NCBI RefSeq assembly: GCF_048287395.1
Contig: NZ_JBLWEO010000022.1
Span: 641 to 24,640 of the forward strand
Source of the DNA: Candidatus Electronema sp. PJ
Lineage (GTDB): Bacteria > Desulfobacterota > Desulfobulbia > Desulfobulbales > Desulfobulbaceae
Length of the DNA stretch: 24,000 bases
Reading direction: 5' to 3'
A model generated the notes under the pieces. It worked only from the letters and a program-made list of their open reading frames with translations. It was not told where the DNA came from and made no database searches. Below, piece by piece: positions 166 through 18,179 of this stretch; position 1 is the first letter of the stretch; each line of letters starts with the position of its first letter. A program made the translations under genes and the position numbers.

Positions 166-936
166 CTAGCTCTCAAGCGAAAGGAATTCCCGCAAAGTTG
201 CGCCCTGCTCTGCACTACGCATCAGGCTTTCCCCAATGAGGGCTGCCTTGACCCCAGCTGCTTTGAGGCGCAGCAAATCAGCCTTACTGGTAATGCCCGA
301 TTCGCTCACCACAGGTATCTCAGTTGGAATGAGCTGCTTCAGGCGAAAGGTGGTTGCCAAATCAAGGCTGAAATCCTTTAGATTACGATTGTTAATCCCC
401 ACCAGGTTTGCTCCGGCAGCCAGAGTGTGCTCAAGTTCTGCCTCATCATGCACCTCGATCAGCACATCAAGGCCGTGCTCCTCTGCCTGGAGCCTGAATT
501 CCTGCATCTGGCTTGTGGTCAGCAACGCAGCGATGAGCAGGATTGCATCCGCACCATAGATGGCGGCCTCCTCAATCTGGATCGGATCAAGAATGAAGTC
601 TTTGCGCAAGACAGGCAAGGCAACCGTGTTCCGCACTAAGGGGATATAGTGCAGAGCACCTTGAAAAAAGTCCACATCCGTCAATACGGACAGGGCATGA
701 GCACCACCCTCCTGGTAATTACGCGCAATTTGGCAGGGATCAAAGTTCGCGCAGAGCAAACCTTTTGAGGGCGAGGCCTTCTTGGCTTCCGCGATGATCG
801 CCACGCCTTCTGCCTGGAGCAAAGCCTGCCTGAAACCACGCGGCGGCGGCACAAGGAGGTCTGGATGACGAATGCCCTGTTGCTTCAGGGCAGCTATTTC
901 TTCCCGCTTACGCGCGGCGATAGTGTCAAGAATCAT
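166..936 (-). CDS. trpC: Indole-3-glycerol-phosphate synthase
   Basis: The 256-aa ORF resembles TrpC TIM-barrel proteins over its full length (IIAEAKKASPSKG, LRKDFILDPIQI, LIEVHDEAEL, GINNRNL, SESGI). ATG is at 936 and TAG at 166-168. Confidence 0.9.
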   Translation of the reverse strand: MILDTIAARKREEIAALKQQGIRHPDLLVPPPRGFRQALLQAEGVAIIAEAKKASPSKGLLCANFDPCQIARNYQEGGAHALSVLTDVDFFQGALHYIPLVRNTVALPVLRKDFILDPIQIEEAAIYGADAILLIAALLTTSQMQEFRLQAEEHGLDVLIEVHDEAELEHTLAAGANLVGINNRNLKDFSLDLATTFRLKQLIPTEIPVVSESGITSKADLLRLKAAGVKAALIGESLMRSAEQGATLREFLSLES

Positions 937-1184
937 GATGTTGGGCTTTTTTGCTCATTTTTCATCAAAACAAAGGGCAGACGCAGCATACCATGCGCCA
1001 TCTTTGACGGCAATCAGAAGACGCAGCCCTGCTCGGCTCAATTTTGCTTCAGCTTCAGCGCAAAGAAAAGAGAGAGCACCTCTTGCTTGAGGTGCGGCGG
1101 ATGTAATCACGTGCTCTTTGGTATCTTGCACAGTTTGCGGAAGTTCTCTGTAACTCTACCAGGGAAGAGGATTACTCGTTGACC

Positions 1185-1415
1185 AAGGAGTTTAGCTCGG
1201 CCAGAAAGGAGTTGTACTCAGTAAAAGAGGAGTTTTGCTTGGCCAAACTGCTTTCCTGTTAAGCCACAAAGGAGTTTGGCTCAGCCGTAAAGGAATCTTG
1301 CCGACTTGCAAAGGAGTTGGAGTCGGCCAAACTCCTTTTCTGCCGAGTAAGATTCCTTTCCAAGTCGGCAGAACTCCTCTTTTGCCGAGCCAAACTCCTT
1401 TGCCAGCTACCTTGC
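1185..1415. repeat. Family A 21-nt tandem repeat array, locus 1 (11 units)
   Basis: GGAG recurs at 1187, 1208, 1229, 1271, 1292(GGAA) and 1313, always in steps of 21 or 42 nt. The complementary ACTCC/ATTCC then recurs at 1331, 1352, 1373 and 1394 in the same register. The forward unit is about AAGGAGTTTGGCTCGGCCARA. The unit polarity order is F F F R F F F R R R R. Confidence 0.85.
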
Positions 1416-1443
1416 TCGCAGCCAGGAAGGATGATGCTTTGGG

Positions 1444-2583
1444 CTAATCAAGATGCTGCTGAAGCCAAGGGCGTAAGGCTGCTTCGATGCGGGCATGAGT
1501 GTTACTGGTGGGATGTCCGTCGCCCTTAATGATAAGTTCGGCTACCTTTTTCTCCTTAAAAGCCTGATGCATCATTGGTAAGAGCGAAAAGAAGGGTAAC
1601 TTTTTTTCTTTTGCCCATCTGGAAGCATGATGATCAACACTGTTGGCATAATTAAGGGCAGAGAGACCGCTCTTTGGTTGCACAGAGTGTACACTTAGAT
1701 GAGTTATGAGCAGTTTTACCTTGCGTTGTTGTAAATATGTCGCAAAGTAATTCAGATATTCTTGACTCATCTGCCAATATCTGTCAACTAAGGCCGAAGG
1801 AAGCGCAAATGGCCCTTTACCGACAGCGGCTTGAAATTCATTCGTCTGCTTGAGGGCTTTCTGATGATCGGCAATCAGCTGTTCCAAAGGGGAACGCAGG
1901 AGATTGCGCCGTAAACGAGTCAAACCCGCATAGAAATACGAAAGAGGTCTTCTGCTTTCAGCTGTAGGATAGAGAATTCGATCTGCATCATCAAGAGATG
2001 GAAAATGAAAATAGGCTAATTCCCTCTCACGATCTTCCCATAAATCATTTTCGTAAAGCATGAGAAGCACAGCATCGGGTTCTAAAGCGGCATAGCGTTC
2101 TGCATTGGCTGCATAGTAAACAGGACTTGCTCCTTGTACGCCTGCATTGACAACCTCCCAGTCAGCACGGCCAAGATGCGCACCTAAGAGATGGGTAAAT
2201 GTGTTGCTGAATTCGCTACCATGCCCTTCAACAATCGAATCCCCTACAACGAGAAGTCGTTTAACTGTTACTGGCTTGGGAAGGATGATTTCTGGGCCGC
2301 GAAATCCTCGGGAATTGATAACATACTGCACACGATAAGCTGATCGAGCCTGGATGTACGCTGCTTTTGGAATATGAAAATAAAAATACGGCTTTGTTTG
2401 AACGATATAGGGGTTGAATTGATACGGATCAATCGTCCGTGGCAGCGGAGGAGGAGGAATGAAGCGCGGAGTTACCAGGAAACGCATCACAATCTCCCCG
2501 GAAACGAGGAAGAATAGGAAGGGAATTATAACGGCTCCGGCAGAAAAGATCAGTTTTTCATGCCAGCACTTCCTGTTGCTCAT
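1444..2583 (-). CDS. Membrane-anchored SGNH/GDSL-family hydrolase
   Basis: Block I is VVGDSIVEGHGS and the C-terminal block V is GDGHPT (DxxH). An N-terminal TM helix is present (LIFSAGAVIIPFLFFLV). The ORF track starts at a TTG at 2622; I prefer the first ATG at 2583. Neither has a clear SD, so the start is uncertain. Confidence 0.7.
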   Translation of the reverse strand: MSNRKCWHEKLIFSAGAVIIPFLFFLVSGEIVMRFLVTPRFIPPPPLPRTIDPYQFNPYIVQTKPYFYFHIPKAAYIQARSAYRVQYVINSRGFRGPEIILPKPVTVKRLLVVGDSIVEGHGSEFSNTFTHLLGAHLGRADWEVVNAGVQGASPVYYAANAERYAALEPDAVLLMLYENDLWEDRERELAYFHFPSLDDADRILYPTAESRRPLSYFYAGLTRLRRNLLRSPLEQLIADHQKALKQTNEFQAAVGKGPFALPSALVDRYWQMSQEYLNYFATYLQQRKVKLLITHLSVHSVQPKSGLSALNYANSVDHHASRWAKEKKLPFFSLLPMMHQAFKEKKVAELIIKGDGHPTSNTHARIEAALRPWLQQHLD

Positions 2584-2631
2584 CTTGGGCGAATCAGTTG
2601 GGTTGATTGAAGCCGTTAGCAAGGCAACCAG

Positions 2632-6182: not shown

Positions 6183-7202
6183 TCAATTTTTCCTTTTCTG
6201 ATAGACGGACACTGCCCGATTATGCTCCTCTAAGGTGCGGGAGAATTGGTGGCTGCCATCGTTCTTAGAAACAAAGTACAGATAAGGCACTTCCGCCGGA
6301 TGCAGCACTGCCTCTAAAGCTGCTTTGCCGGGATTGCAGATTGGCCCGATAGGCAGGCCGCTGATCACATAGGTATTGTAGGGAGTTTCGGCTAATAGGT
6401 CAGCCTTAGTCAGATTACCGTTGAAATCCTTGATGCCATAGATGGTGGTTGGATCAGATTGTAGGCGCATTCCAATGCGAAGGCGGTTATAAAACACCCC
6501 GGCAATGGTCTTGCGCTCGCTGGCTGCGCCGGTCTCTTTTTCGACTATGGAGGCCAGGATAAGCAGCTGCTGGGGACTATATTTTGCCTCTTGTGCGCTG
6601 AGTTCGGTTGGGTTCAACTCTTTCCAGACCGCGAAAAAACGCCGGACCATGCTGGTAATCAGGATTTGCTCGTCTGTTTCGCCGCGCACCAGGCTGTAGG
6701 TTTCCGGGAAAAGATAGCCTTCGAGCGAGTCTGCTCGCACGCCCAGTTTGTTCAGGAACTTTTTGTCCTGGCAAAGCTGAAGAAACACGGCCCGATCCGC
6801 CCAACCCTGCTTGGCAAAGATGTCGGCAACCTGGGCCATCGTCAGCCCTTCAGGAATTGTCACCCGATACTGAACCGGTTTGGCGGTGTGCAGAAAGCGG
6901 ATCACCTGGAGCGGGGTTAGGCCGAGCGGGACGTGAAATTCACCTGCCCGCAACTTGGGCGGATTATCCCGTTCGATCTCCCGCAGCAGCCGCACTAAGG
7001 CCAAAAAGCGGAGGTCATCTTTGATCACCCCTTTTTCACCGAGCAGGGCCATGATTTGGCGGCTGCCTGCGCCTTTGGGCAGCACAACAAGCACCTCGCC
7101 GTGGCCGGGCAGGGGCTTGAAGACGTAATACGCCAACCAACCTGCGGCGAGCAAGCTGCTGCTCAGAAATAGTACGAAAAGGATGCGGAGAAGCGAACGC
7201 AT
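6183..7202 (-). CDS. mltG: Endolytic murein transglycosylase MltG (YceG-like)
   Basis: The 339-aa ORF has an N-terminal TM anchor and the YceG core (LASIVEKET, VFYNRL..GM.LQSDPT, YNTY...GLP.GPI.NPG). Confidence 0.9.
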   Translation of the reverse strand: MRSLLRILFVLFLSSSLLAAGWLAYYVFKPLPGHGEVLVVLPKGAGSRQIMALLGEKGVIKDDLRFLALVRLLREIERDNPPKLRAGEFHVPLGLTPLQVIRFLHTAKPVQYRVTIPEGLTMAQVADIFAKQGWADRAVFLQLCQDKKFLNKLGVRADSLEGYLFPETYSLVRGETDEQILITSMVRRFFAVWKELNPTELSAQEAKYSPQQLLILASIVEKETGAASERKTIAGVFYNRLRIGMRLQSDPTTIYGIKDFNGNLTKADLLAETPYNTYVISGLPIGPICNPGKAALEAVLHPAEVPYLYFVSKNDGSHQFSRTLEEHNRAVSVYQKRKN

Positions 7203-7289
7203 GAAGAGAACTCTGGCCTAAGTTGCAGTCAATAAACAGGGTTACGGTTTATAGTACAGCAAGCGGTCAGCCAGTTGAAGCGAAAAACG

Positions 7290-7646
7290 AATCTTCCGTA
7301 GTTGTTGGAAGAGCTTGGCAAGGAAGTAAGGCAGGAGTACAGCTCGTTTACAGAGGAGTTTTGCTTGGTAAGAAAGGAGTTGTACTCGGCAGAAGAGGAG
7401 TTTGGCCAAGCCGAACTCCTTTCCTAGTAAGCAACAAAGGAGTTTTGCCGACTCAAACTCCTTTCTGAGTCGGCAAAACTCCTCTGCGGCTTGGCCAAAC
7501 TGCTTTGGTAGTCGGCCAGACTCCTTTTCTGCCGAGCAAGATTCCTTTGCAAGTCGGCAAAACTCCTTTGCGGCCAAGCAGCAAAGAAGTCTTGCCGACT
7601 TCAACTCCTTGGCCAGCGAGTAAGAAAGGAGTCTGGAACGTACCCT
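7290..7646. repeat. Family A 21-nt tandem repeat array, locus 2 (about 17 units)
   Basis: The register is perfectly maintained. GGAG starts at 7334, 7355, 7376, 7397 and 7439. CTCC-type units start at 7416, 7458, 7479, 7521, 7563 and 7605. The array contains an 18-bp perfect hairpin (7438-7455 pairs with 7466-7483; the loop is AACTCCTTTC). Confidence 0.85.
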
Positions 7647-7664
7647 TTCTTGTTGACCGATCTT

Positions 7665-9398
7665 TTACCGATGTTGCTCCCGCTCTCTGCGGAATTTTCT
7701 CGCATTATCCACCCGGTCAGCCCGGAAGGTCGGCTTTTCCTGCACCACTTTGACATCTACTGGCTTGCCATTCACTTTGACTTGCTGAAAAGCGTGGAGT
7801 ATTTGCGGGATAAAACGGCTTTCTCCCTCCAGCATGGCGGTGTTGCGCAGGATTTCGATCTTGCCAACTTTAATCCGCCCGCCGCCAGGTACCTCGTTAA
7901 TGGTGCTGATCAGGTTTTCCGGCAGAATACCGTTGCGGCGACCGACGTTCAAGTGAAATTGGGCGAATTCTTTGCCGATAGACTCGCTGCGCGGGTTGGG
8001 CTTTCGCTCTTCGCCTCGGTTGCTCCGCACACCAAGGCTGGGATGACTGCTGCTGAGTCGCCGCTCAGAAGGTTTGGGGTTGATGTCAGGCGCATTCCGG
8101 TAGTATTCCATGAATCTACCGAATTCGAGCGCGATGATTTTCTTGATCAACTGCTCTTTATCCAGATGCTCAAGCTGGCCAGCGATTTCGCTGTAAAGTG
8201 GCTCGATCTGCTCCTGATCCACGGCTGCGCTGCTCAGGCGCTCAATCAGACTGAAAAGCTGTTTACGGCAGATTTCCTGGCCATTGGGAATCGTGCATTG
8301 CCGGAACTGTCGCTTGAGGCGGCTTTCAATCTGCTTGATCTTATACATATCCCGCGCATCAACCAGAGCCACGGAGATGCCAGTCCGGCCAGCGCGTCCG
8401 GTACGTCCGCTCCGGTGGGTGTAACCGGCAGTATCGTCCGGCAAACTGTAGTTGATCACGTGGGTCAGATCGCTGACGTCCAAACCACGGGCTGCAACAT
8501 CTGTGGCAACCAGGAGCTGGAGATTCCTGCTGTGGAATTTCTTCATCACCAGGTCGCGCTGGGATTGCGTCAGGTCGCCATGTAACGAATCAGCCTTGTA
8601 ACCATCCTGAATCAGTTTGTCGGCAATCTCCTGGGTGTCCATGCGGGTCCGGCAGAAGACGATAGCGTAGATTTCAGGGCAGCTATCCAAGATTCTCTTC
8701 AGAGCTGCATAGCGGTCTCTGGGGTTAATCACATAGTATTCGTGACTGACGTTTTCCGAACCGGCATTGCGCGCCCCGACGGTGATCTCCACCGGGTTGC
8801 TCATATACTTGCTGGCAATGTCCGCAACTTCCCGCGACATTGTTGCGGAAAAAAGCAGGGTGTTTTTCTCGGCTGGGGTCTCACTCAGAATTGCGTTCAG
8901 CTCTTCCTGGAAGCCCATGTTCAGCATCTCGTCAGCCTCATCCAGCACAACAAAGCGAACCGCCGTGATGTCAGCCATTTTCCGCCGGAGCATGTCGCGC
9001 AGTCGCCCTGGGGTCGCGACAATGATCTGCGCACCTCGGCGGAGTTCCCGCATCTGCTGCTCAATGCTCGCGCCACCGTAAATCGCGACAATATTAATCC
9101 CCGGAATATGCCGGGCAAAGGATGCCAAATCTCTGGACACCTGCATACACAGCTCTCTGGTCGGACAAAGCACCAACCCCTGCGTCTGCCTGCTCTTCGG
9201 ATCGATGAGCTGTACCAGCGGGAGGCCGAAGGCTGCGGTCTTGCCGGTTCCGGTCTGGGCCAGACTGACTATGTCCGCATGGTTTTTCAAAATTAACGGA
9301 ATAGCCTGCGCCTGGATGGGGGTAGGCTCGGTGAAGCCCAGATCAGAAAGCGCGGAGATGATTTCGCTGCTGATGCCGAGATCTGCAAATGTGCTCAT
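7665..9398 (-). CDS. deaD: DEAD-box ATP-dependent RNA helicase with C-terminal DbpA-type RNA-binding domain and basic tail
   Basis: Motifs present: Q-motif/GFTEPTPIQ, AQTGTGKT, PTRELC, VLDEADEM (DEAD), SAT, HGDL, YTHRSGRTGRAG. The C-terminal FHLNVGRRNGILPENLI...KVGKIEIL is DbpA-like. The track start (9428) is a TTG; the ATG at 9398 (MSTFADLGIS) is preferred. Confidence 0.9.
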   Translation of the reverse strand: MSTFADLGISSEIISALSDLGFTEPTPIQAQAIPLILKNHADIVSLAQTGTGKTAAFGLPLVQLIDPKSRQTQGLVLCPTRELCMQVSRDLASFARHIPGINIVAIYGGASIEQQMRELRRGAQIIVATPGRLRDMLRRKMADITAVRFVVLDEADEMLNMGFQEELNAILSETPAEKNTLLFSATMSREVADIASKYMSNPVEITVGARNAGSENVSHEYYVINPRDRYAALKRILDSCPEIYAIVFCRTRMDTQEIADKLIQDGYKADSLHGDLTQSQRDLVMKKFHSRNLQLLVATDVAARGLDVSDLTHVINYSLPDDTAGYTHRSGRTGRAGRTGISVALVDARDMYKIKQIESRLKRQFRQCTIPNGQEICRKQLFSLIERLSSAAVDQEQIEPLYSEIAGQLEHLDKEQLIKKIIALEFGRFMEYYRNAPDINPKPSERRLSSSHPSLGVRSNRGEERKPNPRSESIGKEFAQFHLNVGRRNGILPENLISTINEVPGGGRIKVGKIEILRNTAMLEGESRFIPQILHAFQQVKVNGKPVDVKVVQEKPTFRADRVDNARKFRREREQHR

Positions 9399-9620
9399 AA
9401 GGGGTGTTCCTGTTTCAACTGAAGGCAATTAATAGAAAAAAAGCAGCCATGCTGCGAGGCTTGCTGTAATGCGCGGGTTGTGCGGAAAGGGTGACAGGAT
9501 GGACTATGGATGAAGATTTGCTAAGATACCCTGTATCGAGTCAGAAAACAAACTTTTTTTCTTTTGCACGGATTTTTTTCACTCAAGGAAGAGGATACCA
9601 TCGAGGTAAACGAGACCGCT

Positions 9621-9662
9621 CATCAATTTTCCTTGGCCACAAAGGAGTTTGGCCGAGCAACT
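9621..9662. repeat. Family A repeat, isolated copy (1-2 units)
   Basis: AAGGAGTTTGGCCGAGCAACT at 9642-9662 matches the family A forward unit and is preceded by TTCCTTGGCCACA. It lies in the long helicase upstream region. Confidence 0.5.
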
Positions 9663-9680: not shown

Positions 9681-10322
9681 CTAAAATTGATACAAGTTAA
9701 CGTAAAGAATGATCCCCAGGAAAACTGCGAGTACCAAACAGCTGATCAGCAAACTGCCTCCTCGCAGTACGGTATTCCAGCCAGGATGATTGATTCCTAC
9801 ACTTTGCAAGAGCGACCAAAAGCCGTGGCTGATGTGCAAAACCAGAGCCATAATGCCGACGGCATAGAGTGGGGCCAACAGAGGATTGGTCAATACCCTG
9901 CTTACTCTCTCTGCCACGGGAATGGCCTGATCGGTAAAACGCACTGTGGCCAGATGCAGCAGAAGAAAAGCGAGATTGAGCAGTCCGGTGTAGGGCATCG
10001 TGCGCACAGCCCAAGTTTGCGCAAGGGCGGACTTGCTGCCTGCATATCTGCCAGATTTCGCTTGGCGGTTACGGAGAAATAAACTGATCCCGGTGACGAT
10101 GTGCAGGAGAAAGACCGCCAGTAAGAAAAGTCCGGCAGTTGGTAGAAGAGGCCCAAGTGAACGCAGGTGTTCGGCATAGGCAGTGAATACTTCTCGACCT
10201 TGAAAAATCAAGCTATTGCCTGCGGCGTGAAAGACAAGGAAGCTGCCTAGGAGCAGGCCAGTCAGGGCCATGATGTATTTTCTGCCGAGCGAGGAAGTGC
10301 AGATCTGAACAAAGAGAGACAT
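9681..10322 (-). CDS. Succinate dehydrogenase/fumarate reductase-type dihaem cytochrome b membrane subunit (b558-like), orphan
   Basis: Five predicted TM helices, with His in four of them (LVFHAAGN, FLLHIVTG, LLLHLATV, LVLHISHGFW). The N-terminal SSLGRKYIMALTGLLLGSFLVFH resembles type-B SdhC/FrdC. The start is uncertain; I chose the ATG at 10322 (213 aa), while the track gives 10403. Confidence 0.65.
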   Translation of the reverse strand: MSLFVQICTSSLGRKYIMALTGLLLGSFLVFHAAGNSLIFQGREVFTAYAEHLRSLGPLLPTAGLFLLAVFLLHIVTGISLFLRNRQAKSGRYAGSKSALAQTWAVRTMPYTGLLNLAFLLLHLATVRFTDQAIPVAERVSRVLTNPLLAPLYAVGIMALVLHISHGFWSLLQSVGINHPGWNTVLRGGSLLISCLVLAVFLGIILYVNLYQF

Positions 10323-10440
10323 ACCTTGGCGAATGGCGGTTGAAGATAAAGGCGCAGCGAAAAACAGCCTTCCCATTTTAACCGGGAAACAGATATGCTG
10401 CAATTACCGCCTTTGTTTAGCCAGCCGTAGCTTTTTTATC

Positions 10441-10531: not shown

Positions 10532-11836
10532 ATGAGACTGAATGCACTGCTGCACGCTGCAATGCTGTTGATTTTATCGGCAGGGGCTGGCCAAGCTGCA
10601 AGCACTATCACCACGCTGGGACGGCATCCTTTTCATCAACCGCCCTTGCAGTCTGCGGATGATCTCAAGGCAATGATGCGAGAGCATCAGGATGAGATCA
10701 AAGAGGGGCTTGATAAGACAGGAAGCAAGAGTGCGCAGCTGTATAATCTCCTGGAAAAGCAGTTTCCCTTGGCCGAAATCAAGGAAATGCAGTACAAGCC
10801 GGGTGCTACCTTCCTCTGGATGTTCTTCAAGCGCAATGGTAAGGGTAATGTGAAGGTGGTCCGTGATCTTACCTGGGGTGGCAAAGAACCATTTGATGGC
10901 TACGAATTTCTCCTCACCGATAAGGAAAAATGCCAGAGCTATACAGTTACCGTGCCCAAGATATGCGGCAACGTAGCCTTACTGAAAACAGAGCAGCTCA
11001 AAGATTGTTCCAGCGGAGTCTGCGCTGATTGCCCGAAAGAATGCCCAGCAGAGTGTAGGTTAGATCCTCATGATTCGGAGAAGTGTCCGGTGGAATGTAA
11101 AAACTGCCGGGTGGAATGTTTGCCAGAGTTCACCTGTTATGATTTCCCTTTGGATTGCCCAGCAGTATGTCTCGATGATTTGGAAAAGTGCCCGGCAGAA
11201 TGTAAAGGTGTGCCTGAAGCGTGCATTACTGCCTGCCCGGACAGCGACTGTCCGCCAGTCACCTGCGCAGACTGCCCGCCTGACTGTGCTCTTCATCCTG
11301 ATTACTGTCCCGACGAGTGCAAGCTGCTTGACTGCCCAGTCTCTCCTGTTGTCAAAGAGCCGGTAAAAGAGCCATCCTTACCAGTACACTTTGTCGCTGA
11401 TCTCGGCTACTTTAAGCAGACGGATCCAGCCGATTACGTCTTTGGCCGAATTGGTGTGGAGTACAGTCCCTTTGCCTCAGACAGTGACTTTGAGAATATC
11501 TCCTTCCTCGGCATGATCGGTGTTGCGCCGCAAGTCAAAGGCGATGACGGCGACGACGTTCTGCTGTTGGATATGTTTGCCAACTACAACTGGACAGCAG
11601 GGGATATGAAGGGTTGGATCGGTTTAGGAGTAGGCGGTTGGATTACCTCTGGCGATGTGGATGATGACTCAGGAGATACAGATATCGATATCATGGCCAA
11701 TGTCGGTGCCCGGGTATATGGCGACCCTTCAGCCTTTAATGTCTCTGCCTTCTTGGAGATACGGAGTGCGGTTGACGAGTTCGATGGTCTTGCTGAGTAC
11801 GGACGTTTTGGCGTAGGGCTGCGTTGCCGGTTTTAA
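10532..11836 (+). CDS. Secreted cysteine-repeat protein 1 with C-terminal OMP-like beta-barrel domain
   Basis: SD GAGAGGAAAG lies before the ATG. Sec-type signal peptide is MRLNALLHAAMLLILSAGAGQA. A unique domain of about 130 aa comes first. It is followed by 23 Cys between aa 159 and 268, mostly as C-P-x-x-C (nt 11006-11335). The last ~150 aa have alternating hydrophobic residues and end in GLRCRF, i.e. a terminal Phe typical of outer-membrane barrels. Confidence 0.85.
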   Translation: MRLNALLHAAMLLILSAGAGQAASTITTLGRHPFHQPPLQSADDLKAMMREHQDEIKEGLDKTGSKSAQLYNLLEKQFPLAEIKEMQYKPGATFLWMFFKRNGKGNVKVVRDLTWGGKEPFDGYEFLLTDKEKCQSYTVTVPKICGNVALLKTEQLKDCSSGVCADCPKECPAECRLDPHDSEKCPVECKNCRVECLPEFTCYDFPLDCPAVCLDDLEKCPAECKGVPEACITACPDSDCPPVTCADCPPDCALHPDYCPDECKLLDCPVSPVVKEPVKEPSLPVHFVADLGYFKQTDPADYVFGRIGVEYSPFASDSDFENISFLGMIGVAPQVKGDDGDDVLLLDMFANYNWTAGDMKGWIGLGVGGWITSGDVDDDSGDTDIDIMANVGARVYGDPSAFNVSAFLEIRSAVDEFDGLAEYGRFGVGLRCRF

Positions 11837-11956: not shown

Positions 11957-12059
11957 AAACCAATAATAGCTGACCGCTCATTTCGCTTGATTTTTTTCGG
12001 AGATGCCCGGAAATCAGGCGGCAGGGATGGAAAAATTAACAGAAACGGAGAGTTGGAAG

Positions 12060-13115
12060 ATGAAGACAAAGATGTTGCTACAGACTGCGGCACTGTTGCT
12101 GCTGTCCGCAGGTGTTGTTCATGCTGGAGGAAAGTTCGGCAAAAAGCATTGGACCTGCGATGATTGCTCGCCAGAGTGCCTGCAAAATCCCTATGCGAAA
12201 GGCTGCCCTGATATCTGTAAATCTCCTGAATGTCAGACCTCCTGCGAAAAATGCCCGGCAACCTGCAAGCAGCATCCTGGCGCACCAGGCTGCCCGGAGA
12301 TCTGCAAAGACGTGCAATGCCAATCCTGTAGTGACTGCACTCCTGAATGCAAAAAGACTCCTGCTGATCCAACATGCCCGGATATCTGTAAGGACATTAA
12401 GTGCTTCTCCTGTGACGATTGCTCAGTGGACTGCATCATTAACCCGCAGGGCAAAGACTGCCCAGCAGTGTGCGCAGATCTCAATTGCAATGTCTGCGAT
12501 AAGTTCCCCAAAGACTGCCCAGCAACCTGCAAGGACAACCCGAACGATCCTGACAAATGCCGTCCTGAGTGCAAGGATGTTCCTGAAAAATGCCTGATGG
12601 CACCAGTTGATCCTACGCAACAAGACCCTACCCAACAAGAGCCTCCTTCTGAAGCAGGCCCCCTGCGCTTTGTTGGCGATCTTGGCTACTTTAAGCAGAC
12701 TGATCCCGCTGATTACGTCTTTGGCCGGATTGGTGTGGAGTACAGCCCCTTTGCCCCTGGCAGCCGCTTTGAAAACGTTTCCTTCCTGGGTATGATCGGT
12801 GTTGCCCCGCAAGTCAAAGGCGATGACGGCGATGACGCTCTGCTGTTGGATGTATTTGCCAACTACAACTGGACAGCAGGCGATGTCAATGGCTGGGTCG
12901 GTTTAGGTGTAGGCGGCTGGATTACCTCTGGCGATGTGGATGACGATTCAGGGGATACTGACATTGATGTTATGGTCAATGCAGGTGCTCGGATCTATGG
13001 CGATCCATCAGCCTTCAACGTTTCTGCTTTCTTGGAGATCCGCAGCGCAGTTGATGAGTTCGATGGTCTTGCTGAGTACGGACGCTTCGGTGGTGGTCTG
13101 CGCTTCAAGTTCTAA
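12060..13115 (+). CDS. Secreted cysteine-repeat protein 2 (five 28-aa six-Cys modules) with C-terminal OMP-like beta-barrel domain
   Basis: The ATG at 12060 has GGAG 9 nt upstream, and the track start at 12003 is less likely. Signal peptide is MKTKMLLQTAALLLLSAGVVHA. There are 30 Cys in about 146 aa (nt 12156-12593). A PTQQDPTQQEPP linker follows. The C-terminal 150 aa are about 88% identical to protein 1 and end in GLRFKF. Confidence 0.85.
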   Translation: MKTKMLLQTAALLLLSAGVVHAGGKFGKKHWTCDDCSPECLQNPYAKGCPDICKSPECQTSCEKCPATCKQHPGAPGCPEICKDVQCQSCSDCTPECKKTPADPTCPDICKDIKCFSCDDCSVDCIINPQGKDCPAVCADLNCNVCDKFPKDCPATCKDNPNDPDKCRPECKDVPEKCLMAPVDPTQQDPTQQEPPSEAGPLRFVGDLGYFKQTDPADYVFGRIGVEYSPFAPGSRFENVSFLGMIGVAPQVKGDDGDDALLLDVFANYNWTAGDVNGWVGLGVGGWITSGDVDDDSGDTDIDVMVNAGARIYGDPSAFNVSAFLEIRSAVDEFDGLAEYGRFGGGLRFKF

Positions 13116-13880: not shown

Positions 13881-15167
13881 TCAATACCGGTAGTAATCCG
13901 GCTTGTATGGCCCATCAACATTTACGCCAATATAGGTTGCTTGCTCTTTGCTCAGAGTGGTCAACCGGGCATTGATCTTCTGGAGATGGAGCCTGGCCAC
14001 CATCTCGTCGAGCTTCTTCGGCAGGAAATAAACCTGCTTCTCGTAGAGATTGGAGTTGTTCCACAGCTCCATCTGCGCCAGAACTTGGTTGGTAAAGGAG
14101 TTACTCATCACAAAGCTCGGATGCCCTGTGGCACAGCCGAGGTTCACCAGTCTGCCCTCAGCCAGGACAATGATGCGCTTGCCATTCGGAAAGATCACAT
14201 GATCGACCTGGGGTTTAATGTTCTCCCAAGGCAGCTCACGGATACTGGCGATATCTATTTCCGAGTCAAAATGACCGATGTTGCAAACGATGGCCTGGTC
14301 TTTCATCACGTCCATGTGCAATCTGGTGATGACGCGCACATTGCCTGTACAGGTTACAAAGATGTCGCCAATGGGTGCAGCTTCCTCCATAGTCATTACC
14401 CGGTAGCCTTCCATGGCCGCTTGCAGGGCGCAGATCGGGTCGATCTCCGTTACACAGACCACTGCACCCATGCTGCGCAGTGCCTGGGCACAGCCTTTGC
14501 CCACATCCCCATAACCAGCGACCACCGCCACTTTCCCGGCAATCATCACATCCGTGGCTCGCTTGATGCCATCAATCAACGACTCTCGACACCCATAGAG
14601 ATTATCGAACTTCGACTTTGTCACCGAGTCATTGACATTGATCGCCGGAGCCAGCAGCTTGCCTGCCTTGGCCATTTCATTCAGCCGATGCACACCTGTG
14701 GTGGTTTCCTCGGAGATGCCGCGAATCTCCTGCATCAGCTCTGGGTACTTCTCGTGCATGATCTGGGTAAGGTCGCCACCATCATCGAGGATCATGTTTG
14801 GCTTCCAACCATTCGGCCCAAAGATCGTCTGCTCGATGCACCACCAGAACTCCTCCTCAGTTTCTCCCTTCCAAGCGAAAGTCGGGATGCCAGCCTTCGC
14901 CATAGCTGCTGCCGCATGGTCTTGGGTAGAGAAAATATTGCAGGACGACCAGCGCAGCTCCGCACCCAGCTCAACCAGGGTCTCCATCAGCACAGCAGTC
15001 TGGATTGTCATGTGGAGGCAGCCCGCTATGCGCGCACCTTTGAGGGGCTTATCATGGCCGTACTCCGTGCGCAACGTCATCAGGCCCGGCATCTCAGTTT
15101 CAGCAATCGCGACTTCCTTGCGGCCCCATTCAGCCAAACTCATATCTGCTACTTTATAATCATTCAT
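13881..15167 (-). CDS. ahcY: Adenosylhomocysteinase (S-adenosyl-L-homocysteine hydrolase)
   Basis: Typical SahH sequence ([33 protein letters not shown] site, [15 protein letters not shown]-terminus). The track start (15212) is a TTG. The ATG at 15167 has TAGGAGCAACCCG immediately upstream. Confidence 0.95.
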
Positions 15168-15476
15168 CGGGTTGCTCCTATCGTTGGTTATTGATTGCAA
15201 GATTTCAGGCAAGGCTCATTGAGCTTCCTGAGTATTACCATACTTACTGCGCAAAAAGCACGTATATTACCATGCCAAGCCAGGGTTCACAGCATATCTC
15301 GCAACCTCAAATCGCTTTCAGGATAACCAAGAAGGCCTTCAGCTTACCCGCGTATGCTTCCTGAGCTGGCTGAGGAGTCTCCTGCTAACTCAAGACAAAC
15401 TCGTCAGCTGCCGCCATTGCTGCCAGGACAACCGGGAATCCTACGAATTTTCAGCAGTGGTCATGCAGAACAACCA

Positions 15477-15875
15477 AGTTGGTCTGCATTCAGAAGCACT
15501 TTTGCATCTTCCGAAGTAGCATTCACTCGTTTGAAAGCTGGCAACAGACGTGTGGATACTCTATTCAGACATATAAACAGAGCATTTACTCGTTTGTTTG
15601 GAGCATTCAGATGTATGAAATGAGCTTTTGCATGTTCAAAAGCAGCATTCACTCGTTTGAAAGATGGCAACGGACGTGTGAACAGAGCTTTTGGATGTCC
15701 AGAAACAGTGCTCACTCGTTTGTTAAGAGGATTTGGATATCTAAAAGCTCTATTTAGACATATAAATGGAGTGTTCATACGTTTGAATGCAGCATTTACT
15801 CGTCTGTTTGCTCATAACAAACGAGTGAATACTCCAAGCACTCGTTGAAAAACTGTTTGCACACGAGCAAAAACC
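15477..15875. repeat. Family B 21-nt tandem repeat array with 63-nt higher-order period (about 19 units)
   Basis: The unit is about GCATTCACTCGTTTGAAAGNN. Best-conserved copies start at 15519, 15582, 15645, 15708 and 15771 (63-nt steps), then 15792. Weaker units fill every 21-nt slot. An inverted unit (CAAACGAGTGAAT, 15818-15830) lies near the right end. All six frames are largely free of stop codons, as expected for a repeat. Confidence 0.85.
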
Positions 15876-15888
15876 GGGCCGAAACCTG

Positions 15889-16005
15889 CTAAACCACCTT
15901 CCCTTGCTGCCCTGCCAGCTTTTCCTTCAGCGTGGCGTGGTTTTTCTGAACAAGATCAATATTTGGATGGCCGCCGGGGAATTTATTGTTCATGATGGCA
16001 ATGAT
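15889..16005 (-). pseudogene. Relic 2 of a TPR-protein C-terminus
   Basis: The minus-strand frame reads IIAIMNNKFPGGHPNIDLVQKNHATLKEKLAGQQGKVV*. This aligns with the C-terminus of the 16932-18179 protein (ILQAKLPAGHSRISGCQKDYDEMKEKMAGL). An in-frame stop lies immediately upstream. Confidence 0.45.
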
Positions 16006-16012
16006 TCATTCC

Positions 16013-16075
16013 GTAGGGGCAAGCCCCTGTGCTTGCCCTAAGACATTCCGGGCAGGCACAGGGGCCTGCCCCTAC
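16013..16075. repeat. GTAGGGGC...GCCCCTAC palindromic (REP-like) element
   Basis: GTAGGGGCAAGCCCCTGTGCTTGCCC (16013-16038) and GGGCAGGCACAGGGGCCTGCCCCTAC (16050-16075) are inverted repeats with 2 mismatches and an 11-nt loop. The right arm overlaps the stop codon of relic 1. Confidence 0.75.
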
Positions 16076-16206
16076 ACCCCCGCCATCTTCTCCTTCATCT
16101 CATCGCAGTCCTTCTGGCAGCCGATGATGCGCGAATGCCCGGCAGGGAATTTTACCTGCATGATGGCCAAGGCGCGTTGGTGCAGCAGCTCGTCTTTCTC
16201 GTGCAT
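16072..16206 (-). pseudogene. Relic 1 of the TPR-gene 3' end
   Basis: The segment 16066-16180 aligns base-for-base with 16926-17040. There are only 3 mismatches in the first ~75 nt, and it decays after that. It translates as ...LLHQRALAIMQVKFPAGHSRIIGCQKDCDEMKEKMAGV*. An upstream in-frame stop lies at 16255-16257. Confidence 0.65.
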
Positions 16207-16278: not shown

Positions 16279-16548
16279 TCACTTTTTGAACAGCTCGGAA
16301 TGTGAACCTGTCCGCTCCAAAAACAGATCATCGCCAACATATCGGTAGATCAGAATCCAGTCCGGTTCAATATGGCAATCACGGTGTCCTTTCCACTTGC
16401 CTGTCAGCTGATGATCCCGATACTTGGGAGGCGGAGCTTCCCCCTGCAACAGCATTTCGACAACCTCTCTGAGTTTGACAATATCTCTGTTCTGTTTCTG
16501 AGCCTTTTTGTAATCCCGTTTGAACTGCCCGGTGTAATGCAGATTCAA
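16279..16548 (-). CDS. yafQ: Type II toxin, YafQ/RelE-family mRNA interferase
   Basis: The 89-aa ORF closely parallels E. coli YafQ (YKDH.L.G.WKG.RD.H.EPDWILIY...ERTG.H..LF). Confidence 0.85.
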   Translation of the reverse strand: MNLHYTGQFKRDYKKAQKQNRDIVKLREVVEMLLQGEAPPPKYRDHQLTGKWKGHRDCHIEPDWILIYRYVGDDLFLERTGSHSELFKK

Positions 16549-16805
16549 TTGTCCAGCTCCTGGAACAGCTCGTCAACAGAGGCAGCCTGCCGGACATCCT
16601 TTCCCTGTTCGGCAGCGGCCAAAGTTTTTGCCGTTACCTTGTTGGGGATTTTGACCTCAAAGGGAATTTTTTGCTGCTGTGCAATTTGGGACAGATAGAG
16701 CGAGATTGCCTCGGCCATAGACATGTTCAGCCTCCTGAGCACTTTCCTGGCATTCTGCTTGATCTCCGGGTCAACGCGGGTATGAACGGCTGCTGTCTTC
16801 AACAT
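16545..16805 (-). CDS. dinJ: Type II antitoxin, DinJ/RelB family
   Basis: The 86-aa ORF has an RHH-type N-terminus (VHTRVDPEIKQNARKVLRRLNMSMAEAISLYL) and IPFEV like DinJ. It has a 4-nt ATGA overlap with yafQ. Confidence 0.85.
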   Translation of the reverse strand: MLKTAAVHTRVDPEIKQNARKVLRRLNMSMAEAISLYLSQIAQQQKIPFEVKIPNKVTAKTLAAAEQGKDVRQAASVDELFQELDN

Positions 16806-16907: not shown

Positions 16908-16935
16908 GTAAGGGCGTTTCGCGAAACGCCCCTAC
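16908..16935. repeat. GTAGGGGC-type palindrome at the TPR gene stop
   Basis: On the minus strand, GTAGGGGCGTTTCGCGAAACGCCCTTAC. The TAG stop (16932-16934) is embedded in the left arm, the same arrangement as at 16072-16075. Confidence 0.6.
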
Positions 16936-18179
16936 AACCCCGCCATCTTCTCCTTCATCTCATCGTAGTCCTTCTGGCAGCCGCTGATGCGCGAATGCCC
17001 GGCAGGAAGTTTTGCCTGCAAGATGGACAGGGCGCGTTGGAACAGTGGCTCCGCTTCCTCGTATCGTCCTTGATCGCGGTAGAGATTGGCTAAGGTACGT
17101 AAGGTGGTTGTCACATGCGAATGCTCTTTGCCTAGAGCTTGCTCAAAAATCTCCAGTGAGCGCTTGCACAGCGGCTCGGCTTCGGCATATCTTCCTTGGT
17201 AGCGGTAGAGATTGGCCAGAGTGCGCAGAATAGCGGCCACATGCAAATATTCTATGCCAGTAGCTTGCTCCCAAATCTCCAGTGAACGCTTATACAGCGG
17301 CTCGGCGGCATTGTATCTGCCCTGATACTCATAACACCACGCCAGTTCATGCGCTGCGCGAGCAAAATCAAGTCCGTCTTTGTCCTCCTCTTCCCTTATT
17401 CGCAGCAGCCGTTCCAGCCATTCCTGCGCCTGTGCATGGTTGAATAGCGTCCTAGCCATCTGTCCTGCCGCCAGCAAATAGTCCGGGTTGTCCCTCTCCA
17501 GCAGCACGGCTACCCGGTATAGCTCCATCGCCTCGGCATAGTTCACTTCGCTTTCGGCCAGCTTCCCTTCGTGGTGCGCCGCCAAGGCCGCCGCTTTGCC
17601 CGCCTGCTTGCGCACCTCGGCAAAGGTCTCTTTCGCCGCCTTGGTGTCGCCCTGCCGCAGACTGACCTGCGCCTTTTCGATCCGCGCATCCGGCATCTGG
17701 CATTTCATCTGGTCAAGAGCCTCGTCCGCAGCCTTGCGGCGCAGCTGCTCCTCCTTCCAGCTCTCCCGGATGTCGGTCAAATGCTCCTGCACCCCCTGCA
17801 ACTGCGCTTCAAGAAGCTGCCGCTGCTTGTCGTCGGCCATTGAACCGGAGGCTTGCAGATCAAGAATCTGCTGGCGCAGGGTTTTCAGCTCCTCCTCATA
17901 CTGACGCATCCCGTCGGGCTTGTCCGCTGGCTTCCAGTTCTTGACTTTATCGGCGATAAAAAACAAGAAAGCAAGCATCGCAGGAATCCAAACAGCCTTG
18001 TCATCCTTGCCCAAGAAGATCACAGCGGCCATGACGAAGAGGATAAGGAAGAAAATTAGATGCGGCAGCCGTCCTTTGCGCTCGCCGCATTTGAGCAGCA
18101 GGGCAAAAACAAGCAGGCTGTAGCAAATCAACAGCAGCGGCTGCTGATATTGGGTTATCCAGACGCTCGCATTCTTCAT
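16932..18179 (-). CDS. Membrane-anchored coiled-coil / TPR-repeat protein (kinesin-light-chain-like TPR_10/12 repeats)
   Basis: GGAGG lies 9 nt before the ATG. There are three N-terminal TM helices and a coiled-coil segment of about 100 aa. Tandem 42-aa TPR pairs follow (LANLYRYQGRYAEAEPLCKRSLEIFEQALGKEH...). Confidence 0.85.
   Translation of the reverse strand: MKNASVWITQYQQPLLLICYSLLVFALLLKCGERKGRLPHLIFFLILFVMAAVIFLGKDDKAVWIPAMLAFLFFIADKVKNWKPADKPDGMRQYEEELKTLRQQILDLQASGSMADDKQRQLLEAQLQGVQEHLTDIRESWKEEQLRRKAADEALDQMKCQMPDARIEKAQVSLRQGDTKAAKETFAEVRKQAGKAAALAAHHEGKLAESEVNYAEAMELYRVAVLLERDNPDYLLAAGQMARTLFNHAQAQEWLERLLRIREEEDKDGLDFARAAHELAWCYEYQGRYNAAEPLYKRSLEIWEQATGIEYLHVAAILRTLANLYRYQGRYAEAEPLCKRSLEIFEQALGKEHSHVTTTLRTLANLYRDQGRYEEAEPLFQRALSILQAKLPAGHSRISGCQKDYDEMKEKMAGL

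Follow-up and report, generated by a model that had tools for sequence, protein, structure and literature searches.

A probable family of dispersed, modular palindromic repeats on a 21-nt lattice in the cable bacterium Candidatus Electronema sp. PJ

The repeat array that separates a helicase gene from mltG in Candidatus Electronema sp. PJ, an uncultured, multicellular and electrically conductive freshwater cable bacterium, probably belongs to a non-coding, lineage-restricted family of dispersed intergenic repeats, here called family A, whose members are modular palindromes of the BOX/BIME/MITE type and would be selfish or neutral. The family comprises at least 14 loci, including those of the window (the whole 24,000-nt stretch of DNA that was analysed), and four of its copies are readable as DNA: elements A and B in the window, and one copy each on the metagenome contigs L133 (JGI) and L134 (ENA). 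Each element is 260-360 nt long and consists of a variable number of 21-nt modules between inverted termini. The features of the window to which the text refers are listed below.

7331-7634, minus strand: element B (core), delimited by the four-copy alignment, slot tables and RNA fold; its sense strand is the minus strand of the window
7290-7330, minus strand: degenerate extension of element B by two weak slots, with an uncertain boundary and weak similarity
7603-7623, minus strand: terminal inverted repeat of element B, an exact motif match to TTACTCGYTGRCCAAGGAGTT
7340-7360, plus strand: the other terminal inverted repeat of element B, a degenerate motif match with 3 mismatches
7438-7483, no strand assigned: perfect 18-bp stem with a 10-nt loop, one of the sites at which unit orientation flips
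7665-9428, minus strand: gene for a DEAD-box helicase with a DbpA RNA-binding domain, flanking element B, its stop about 30 nt from the element
6183-7202, minus strand: mltG (YceG family), flanking element B; the protein is 100% identical to MltG of Candidatus Electronema sp. PJ
1161-1420, minus strand: element A, the second copy of family A, delimited by alignment with B and by its fold; the left (sense) terminus is degenerate
1172-1192, plus strand: terminal inverted repeat of element A, an exact motif match to TTACTCGYTGRCCAAGGAGTT
1444-2622, minus strand: gene for a GDSL-like lipase, flanking element A, its stop about 25 nt from the element
166-936, minus strand: trpC (indole-3-glycerol-phosphate synthase), flanking element A
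9621-9662, plus strand: two-slot fragment of family A (fragment C), an R-type slot followed by AAGGAGTTTGGCCGAGC

Register and unit of the array

Locus B was read by cutting positions 7269-7667 into 21-nt slots. A sequence-only reading of the same DNA had counted about 17 consecutive slots in exact register; 15 of these (7332-7646) keep it, and the two that begin at 7290 and 7311 are degenerate. All 15 slots in 7332-7646 are headed, as that reading had it, by either a RAGGAGT-type box (F units) or a CTCCTTT-type box (R units), and the slots of the locus carry a G+C box at slot positions 11-17. The degenerate extension at 7290-7330 weakly resembles the flank of another PJ copy, P0124 (...FAHLFRDLRK in the former, ...LAKLFQQLRK in the latter). 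On its sense strand, element B runs from a left terminus through F (AAGGAGT) units to a hairpin tip, and from there through R (ACTCCTT) units to a right terminus.

The register is strict at both large loci. GGAG starts at positions equal to 5 modulo 21 and CTCC at positions equal to 3 in locus B, with values of 11 and 9, respectively, in locus A; over five loci and both strands, 54 of 55 box-1 matches fall in a single register per strand. The pattern AGGAGT N15 AGGAGT N15 AGGAGT, with up to 2 mismatches allowed, has 11 matches in the window, all of them in loci A and B (0.00 expected from shuffles). Autocorrelation computed over 126-nt segments, with lags of 18-24, 42 and 63 tried, exceeds 0.5 solely at lags 21, 42 and 63, and does so at three places in the window (1143-1438, 7294-7661 and 15493-15951). 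When rerun with 105-nt segments and lags of 5-69, the only addition is a lag-9 signal inside dnaK.

A consensus drawn from 55 units reads AAGGAGTTTTGC[T/C]N[G/A]G[C/T]nnnA. Box 1 (AAGGAGT) occupies slot positions 1-7 and is asymmetric. Box 2 (GCYNRGC), at positions 11-17, is quasi-palindromic and centred on slot position 14, where the information content is lowest; it had been written as GCCGA(G/C)T, for which the quasi-palindrome is the better description. The 18-bp perfect stem proposed between 7438-7455 and 7466-7483 is exact in the sequence, and on the minus strand the 7438-7483 structure resembles a terminator (20 pairs and the tail TTGTTGCTTA). The segment said to be common to both large loci, TTGGCCAAACTGCTTT, is found at 1240-1255 and at 7491-7506.

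The centres of box 1 and box 2 lie 10.5 nt apart, half the 21-nt period, and therefore reflection about either centre maps the lattice onto itself. The F-to-R switches checked in locus B, those at 7408, 7429 and 7461 among them, all have their centre at slot position 14 or on box 1. Given this half-period spacing and a quasi-palindromic box 2, the phase lock can do without a protein bound to one DNA face; it would be a geometric consequence of palindromes or inversions centred on the boxes, for which selection for a helix face is not needed.

Dispersal and common plan of the elements

The recurrence of the family at a second large locus and in a fragment at 9621-9662 proved correct, with the second locus spanning about 1161-1420. 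Loci A and B, two copies of a single element of 260-300 nt, are colinear over about 270 nt at 78% identity, and 7603-7623 of element B pairs with 1172-1205 of locus A as an inverted repeat. A search with the longest ORF of the array (7242-7604, minus strand) returned 15 proteins: ten annotated as 'hypothetical protein' of PJ, one each from an ENA and a JGI metagenome, and three that carry no source name. The ten PJ matches lie on contigs of at least eight differing sizes. Rather than being confined to the loci of the window, the motif thus has at least 12 more copies, corresponding to ten annotated PJ proteins and two metagenome contigs. The metagenome copies hold the 21-nt register over 12 slots in L134 and 14 slots in L133.

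When the four DNA copies are aligned in a common orientation, a shared plan emerges. It starts with the left terminus ACTCCTTTCYTRCTCGCTRGCC, followed by 4-8 F units; the middle consists of the tip AAGGAGTTGAAGTCGGCAAAACTCCTT, one R unit and a conserved F unit, AAGCAGTTTGGCCAAGCC; the element ends with 3-4 R units and the right terminus CTCCTTGGnnAACGAGCCGTAC. The four-copy alignment shows the termini to be conserved; they are inverted repeats of about TTACTCGYTGRCCAAGGAGTT. On either strand, the DNA copies show a run of GGAG units and then a run of CTCC units, with a few opposite units interspersed. The numbers of units in the two arms are unequal and variable (L133 has 9 F-type and 5 R-type units), and all indels among the four copies are exactly 21 nt. 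Variation of unit number between relatives in exact 21-nt steps, a check proposed in the sequence-only reading, was also borne out at the protein level, where a PJ copy and a copy from an ENA metagenome contig, which have the same left flank, differ by two exact gaps of 7 residues (21 nt).

Family A was not found in Electronema aureum (21 kb), strain V4 (21 kb), JC (13 kb), F5 (8.7 kb) or two JGI loci, and a scan of viral contigs gave no match either. A scan of JGI metagenome contigs for the terminal inverted repeat gave 8 matches, all isolated chance matches without an array. The matches listed in a scan of genome contigs with AGGAGT-N15-AGGAGT-N15-AGGAGT were dominated by heptamer tandem repeats (as in L005); many lie on cyanobacterial contigs, and none of those listed is a PJ locus.

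Genomic setting

All family-A copies in the window are intergenic, and all genes adjoining the three loci are on the minus strand. Element B is located between the helicase stop and the mltG start, an interval in which no sigma-70-like promoter was found; after PJ, the next relatives of the MltG protein are 77% identical. Fragment C sits 19 nt downstream of the stop of an unassigned minus-strand ORF (9681-10403). In the four window and JGI copies with a visible flanking gene, the element starts 19-110 nt past a stop codon. The sense of the element relative to its neighbours varies: A and B run with the genes beside them, L133 runs against both of its own, and L134 is antisense to the one flanking gene fragment that is visible.

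Coding potential

Substitutions between elements A and B are spread evenly over the codon positions (14/13/12). Every frame has a stop in A or in B, and no frame is open in both; the frame of the annotated ORFs is open in element B, L133 and L134 and contains stops in element A. The pseudo-ORFs have unrelated N- and C-termini in different copies, starting and ending at different points of the array, and the array ORF has no Pfam match. The consensus unit is free of stops in all six frames, so that long open frames arise at no cost, as BOX elements also illustrate (PMC3049150). A genuinely translated heptad-repeat gene around the arrays, the possibility raised in the sequence-only reading, is contradicted by the flat codon profile, the stops in element A, the unrelated ORF ends and the lack of a Pfam match. 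The PJ annotations P0123, P0124, P0126-P0131, P0134 and P0135 are translations of family-A arrays with unrelated ends, and ten or more of the 'hypothetical proteins' of PJ are probably spurious CDS calls.

RNA folding

Pairing between units of opposite polarity had been anticipated, and in-silico folding gives long, nearly continuous hairpins in all four copies:

Element B, minus strand: -166.5 kcal/mol, z -9.0
Element B, plus strand: -173.0 kcal/mol, z -9.4
Element A, minus strand: -123.2 kcal/mol, z -7.2
L133: -176.1 kcal/mol, z -9.9
L134: -149.7 kcal/mol, z -9.4

No strand asymmetry was found in folding energy or in G-U pairs. At gathering thresholds no Rfam family, CsrB/Rsm included, matches in the window; in E-value mode, the search returned sub-threshold matches to miRNA-precursor hairpins and one weak match to the STnc490 sRNA, and nothing else.

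Proposed origin and behaviour

In the model that we propose for the family, the formation of a palindrome, or an inversion, centred on a box would flip AAGGAGT to ACTCCTT while keeping the register, and this would be the origin of the phase lock. Slippage or unequal recombination would then change the number of units within an element in exact 21-nt steps. Spread to new intergenic sites would occur by a process of the transposition or recombination type. The mobility of family A is suggested by its dispersal alone: the four DNA copies revealed neither a target-site duplication nor an empty site or a cognate transposase, no direct repeat is shared beside the termini, whose ends are not defined to the base, and no transposase-like Pfam match occurs among the window ORFs that were scanned. 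When the flanking operon is transcribed, either strand could fold into a long, nearly continuous hairpin, which may incidentally be a substrate for RNase III, a barrier to 3'-exonucleases or a weak terminator.

Other periodic arrays in Electronema

Family A is not the only array of this kind. Upstream of ahcY (13881-15212, minus strand), the window contains a second, unrelated array in strict 21-nt register (15484-15860), built on a 63-nt super-unit with the core GCATTCACTCGTTTG and with one inverted copy near its right end (RNA fold z -7.1). Its pseudo-ORF has 8 weak matches among 1.8 billion representatives, including the short repeat ORFs P0137 and P0140; matches of the family-B pseudo-ORF to large heptad-repeat proteins of the ANxAF type were dismissed as low-complexity resemblance.

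Orthologous 21-nt arrays lie directly upstream of mltG in Electronema sp. V4 (L003 9640-9915) and Desulfobulbus sp. F5 (L136 1216-1490), with a unit that differs from that of family A (GGAAYNTT plus GCYNGGC). The two arrays differ by one exact 21-nt indel and are roughly 75% identical (about 54 differences in 212 compared positions), and their upstream flank is nearly identical. One frame is open in both, with substitutions distributed 26/13/15 by codon position; the V4 pseudo-ORF, used as a query, yielded no relatives. When family A was compared with the V4 and F5 arrays by BLAST, the E-values were only about 0.06-0.5, at which common ancestry is not shown. A further 21-nt lattice, with units of about TGAGGCGGATGCGGGCCGACA in both orientations, is found in the JGI metagenome 3300037310 (L137 18581-18832) on an Electronema-like contig, where it separates an exonuclease I gene from a Fer4/CCG gene. 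In Electronema aureum (L001 15706-15890), the formate-tetrahydrofolate ligase gene is preceded by an intergenic array whose palindromic box is of the CTCGCTCGA type and whose period is 23 nt; periodic arrays in the genus are therefore not always 21 nt. Altogether, the non-coding periodic arrays in about 124 kb of Electronema DNA have a period of 21 nt (four unit sequences) or 23 nt (one), and no other.

The gene neighbours of mltG differ in nearly every Electronema-type genome examined (L001, L003, L135, L136, L137 and L138), which indicates extensive local rearrangement. In E. aureum, the region upstream of mltG holds an LRR gene fragment and, of the V4-type array, no more than a 2-unit remnant. 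An array upstream of mltG was considered as a conserved regulatory leader, an idea that was rejected: none is present there in JC and two JGI lineages, E. aureum has at most the remnant, and the gene neighbours differ in every genome.

Alternative explanations

Taken at face value, the NCBI annotation of PJ would make family A a set of small proteins with heptad repeats (KEFxxLx / KLLxxxx). The period does correspond to 7 codons, at least ten copies carry annotated ORFs of 67-192 aa, and a frame is open in element B, L133 and L134; we nevertheless find this scarcely credible, given the flat substitutions (14/13/12) and the stops in element A, the open frames that a consensus free of stops in six frames supplies at no cost, the unrelated starts and ends of the ORFs at different points of the array, the units in both orientations, the missing Pfam match and the Cys-rich, low-complexity character of the peptides. 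At the RNA level, the elements could instead be selected as hairpins in operon transcripts, serving as an RNase III site, a 3'-end protector or an attenuator/terminator that uncouples neighbouring genes; roles in processing, protection and attenuation are established for some REP, ERIC and Correia elements. The folds are indeed very stable, minus-strand gene stops lie about 19-30 nt ahead of A, B and fragment C, a start 19-110 nt past stops would suit a 3'-end function under selection, on the gene strand the central stem of B is terminator-like, and the interval between helicase and mltG yielded no sigma-70-like promoter. This explanation appears unlikely, however, in view of strands that fold equally well with no G-U excess on the transcribed one, a mixed orientation relative to genes, and stems that mostly lack a following U-tract; because the unit numbers of the arms are unequal and variable (9 F versus 5 R in L133), no fixed structure is conserved. 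The boxes had also been read as a Shine-Dalgarno (SD)/anti-SD mimic, and a multivalent RNA of that kind, or a CsrA-type sponge, would use AAGGAG motifs about 21 nt apart to titrate ribosomes or a GGA-binding protein. The organism does use AAGGAG as an SD (dnaK and relB are among the genes preceded by it), several copies have more F than R units (9 versus 5 in L133, mostly F in P0127 and P0128), and several AGGAG motifs stay in loops when an F-run is folded by itself. In full elements, however, most GGAG boxes are paired with CTCC boxes, the many copies are dispersed inside operons rather than forming one or two sRNA genes with promoter and terminator, and no Rfam CsrB/Rsm match exists; a further weakness of the mimic is that sister arrays in related species have the 21-nt period but not AAGGAG, that the two strands fold alike and that orientation is not fixed. 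We regard it as highly improbable, and box 1 most likely resembles a Shine-Dalgarno sequence by coincidence.

At the DNA level, boxes 10.5 bp apart on one helix face might form a protein-binding lattice, a platform for a nucleoid-associated or regulatory protein, in which the period is maintained and the sequence is not. The spacing of the box centres (10.5 nt) and the 21-nt period agree with this, as do the other unit sequences that keep the period (window 15484-15860, V4, F5 and L137), and an orientation-independent function would match the mixed orientations. Geometry and unit-wise duplication nonetheless explain the register without selection, the V4 and F5 arrays are less conserved than their flank, a pattern unexpected for conserved binding sites, one E. 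aureum array has a 23-nt period, and no candidate binding protein is known; we judge such a lattice very unlikely. The preferred reading, a selfish or neutral dispersed repeat, has its own difficulty, in that a purely selfish-element model, as far as these sequences go, gives no explanation for a 21-nt period common to unrelated unit sequences. A broader class of intergenic 'two-helical-turn lattices' in Electronema might account for it: periods of 21 nt (one of 23), boxes every 10.5 nt, and units that turn over while the period is kept as a platform for a DNA- or RNA-binding factor, with the AAGGAG version having proliferated in PJ, where it may titrate ribosomes or CsrA. We consider this class quite unlikely.

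Other repeats in the window

Three further repeats were noted in the window. A 135-nt direct repeat (16068-16202 and 16928-17062, 88% identity) brackets a YafQ-toxin/RelB-antitoxin pair (16279-16805, minus strand); the pair adjoins a TPR gene and looks like a cassette insertion that duplicated the 3' end of that gene. A G+C-rich hairpin with 26-nt arms that are 92% complementary (16013-16075) is intergenic and lies downstream of the YafQ toxin gene (16279-16548, minus strand). A 300-nt repeat (11389-11688 and 12668-12967, 87% identity) is found inside the adjacent plus-strand ORFs 10532-11836 and 12003-13115, which have no Pfam match and have short CCCRGCA-type repeats in common.

Significance

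Family A accounts for a group of 'hypothetical proteins' annotated in PJ that are probably spurious. Its unit number could serve as a marker for strain typing because it changes in 21-nt steps, and its copies flag likely contig breaks or rearrangement points in assemblies of cable bacteria. Among bacterial intergenic repeats, its architecture, a palindrome of modules on a strict lattice, is a new one. If the recurrence of 21 nt is a real genome-wide bias, a common generating mechanism or binding factor would be implied in a cable bacterium about whose gene regulation next to nothing is known.

Comparison with known repeats and RNAs

The strict 21-nt tandem organisation had been called undescribed, and no description of it was found in the papers searched for cable-bacterium repeats. 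By analogy of architecture, the closest known system is the pneumococcal BOX element, with REP/BIME mosaics and hairpin MITEs next. BOX elements carry terminal inverted repeats and tandem boxB modules in varying number; they fold into stem-loops and contain ORFs on both strands (PMC3049150). Like boxA-(boxB)n-boxC of Streptococcus pneumoniae, family A is dispersed and intergenic, has inverted terminal modules around variable tandem internal modules, uses a module length that is a multiple of 3, varies in module number between strains, folds into stem-loops, is co-transcribed with operons and bears ORFs on both strands that are annotated as hypothetical CDS (PMC3049150). The comparison is one of architecture as given in PMC3049150 and implies no membership: the sequences are unrelated and the hosts belong to different phyla. 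The family-A module is 21 nt and bipartite, whereas the BOX module is 45 nt; family-A modules occupy one grid in both orientations, so that the module array itself forms the hairpin arms; and neither a target-site duplication (TSD) nor a related IS is shown for family A.

The assignment to REP/BIME-type mosaics made in the sequence-only reading holds in part. Family A is dispersed, with at least 12 copies outside the window and both orientations within each copy, and it is non-coding, intergenic and able to form long hairpins; yet it does not fit the definition of a REP unit, and BOX is closer. As in the mosaics of Enterobacteria and Pseudomonas, short alternating units in variable number occupy intergenic regions, often between co-directional genes, and paired units form hairpins. 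REP units are 20-40-nt imperfect palindromes with a GTAG or CGTC head, defined linkers and a link to RAYT (TnpA-REP) transposases (PMC3733652, PMC3333891). The family-A unit, AAGGAGTTTTGCYNRGCnnnA, lacks overall self-complementarity; single units are not palindromes, have no GTAG/CGTC head, are not separated by linkers and keep a strict 21-nt period. With MITEs such as Correia/NEMIS, ERIC and RUP, the family shares a length of 100-400 nt, intergenic dispersal, a whole-element hairpin and terminal inverted repeats, which take the form of TTACTCGYTGRCCAAGGAGTT at 1172-1192 (plus strand) and 7603-7623 (minus strand) and a degenerate version at 7340-7360 (plus strand). MITE interiors, in contrast, are unique sequence and their target-site duplications are defined, whereas family A consists almost wholly of tandem 21-nt modules and no TSD is seen.

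Small RNAs of the CsrB/RsmZ type resemble family A in their many A(N)GGA motifs at roughly 20-nt spacing. They are, however, single dedicated genes with a promoter and terminator and expose their GGA motifs in loops, whereas family A has many copies, its motifs are largely paired with their complements and no Rfam match exists. In a related bacterial group, the multicopy nucleotide sequences of Geobacter metallireducens are lineage-specific and intergenic, with short tandem repeats and sometimes paired sites on opposite strands (PMC2700814). Family A likewise consists of intergenic multicopy sequences with short tandem repeats. The Geobacter families have units of 7-9 nt in 3-5 copies, with variable spacing between paired sites (PMC2700814), whereas family A is a 21-nt lattice that forms a continuous palindrome.
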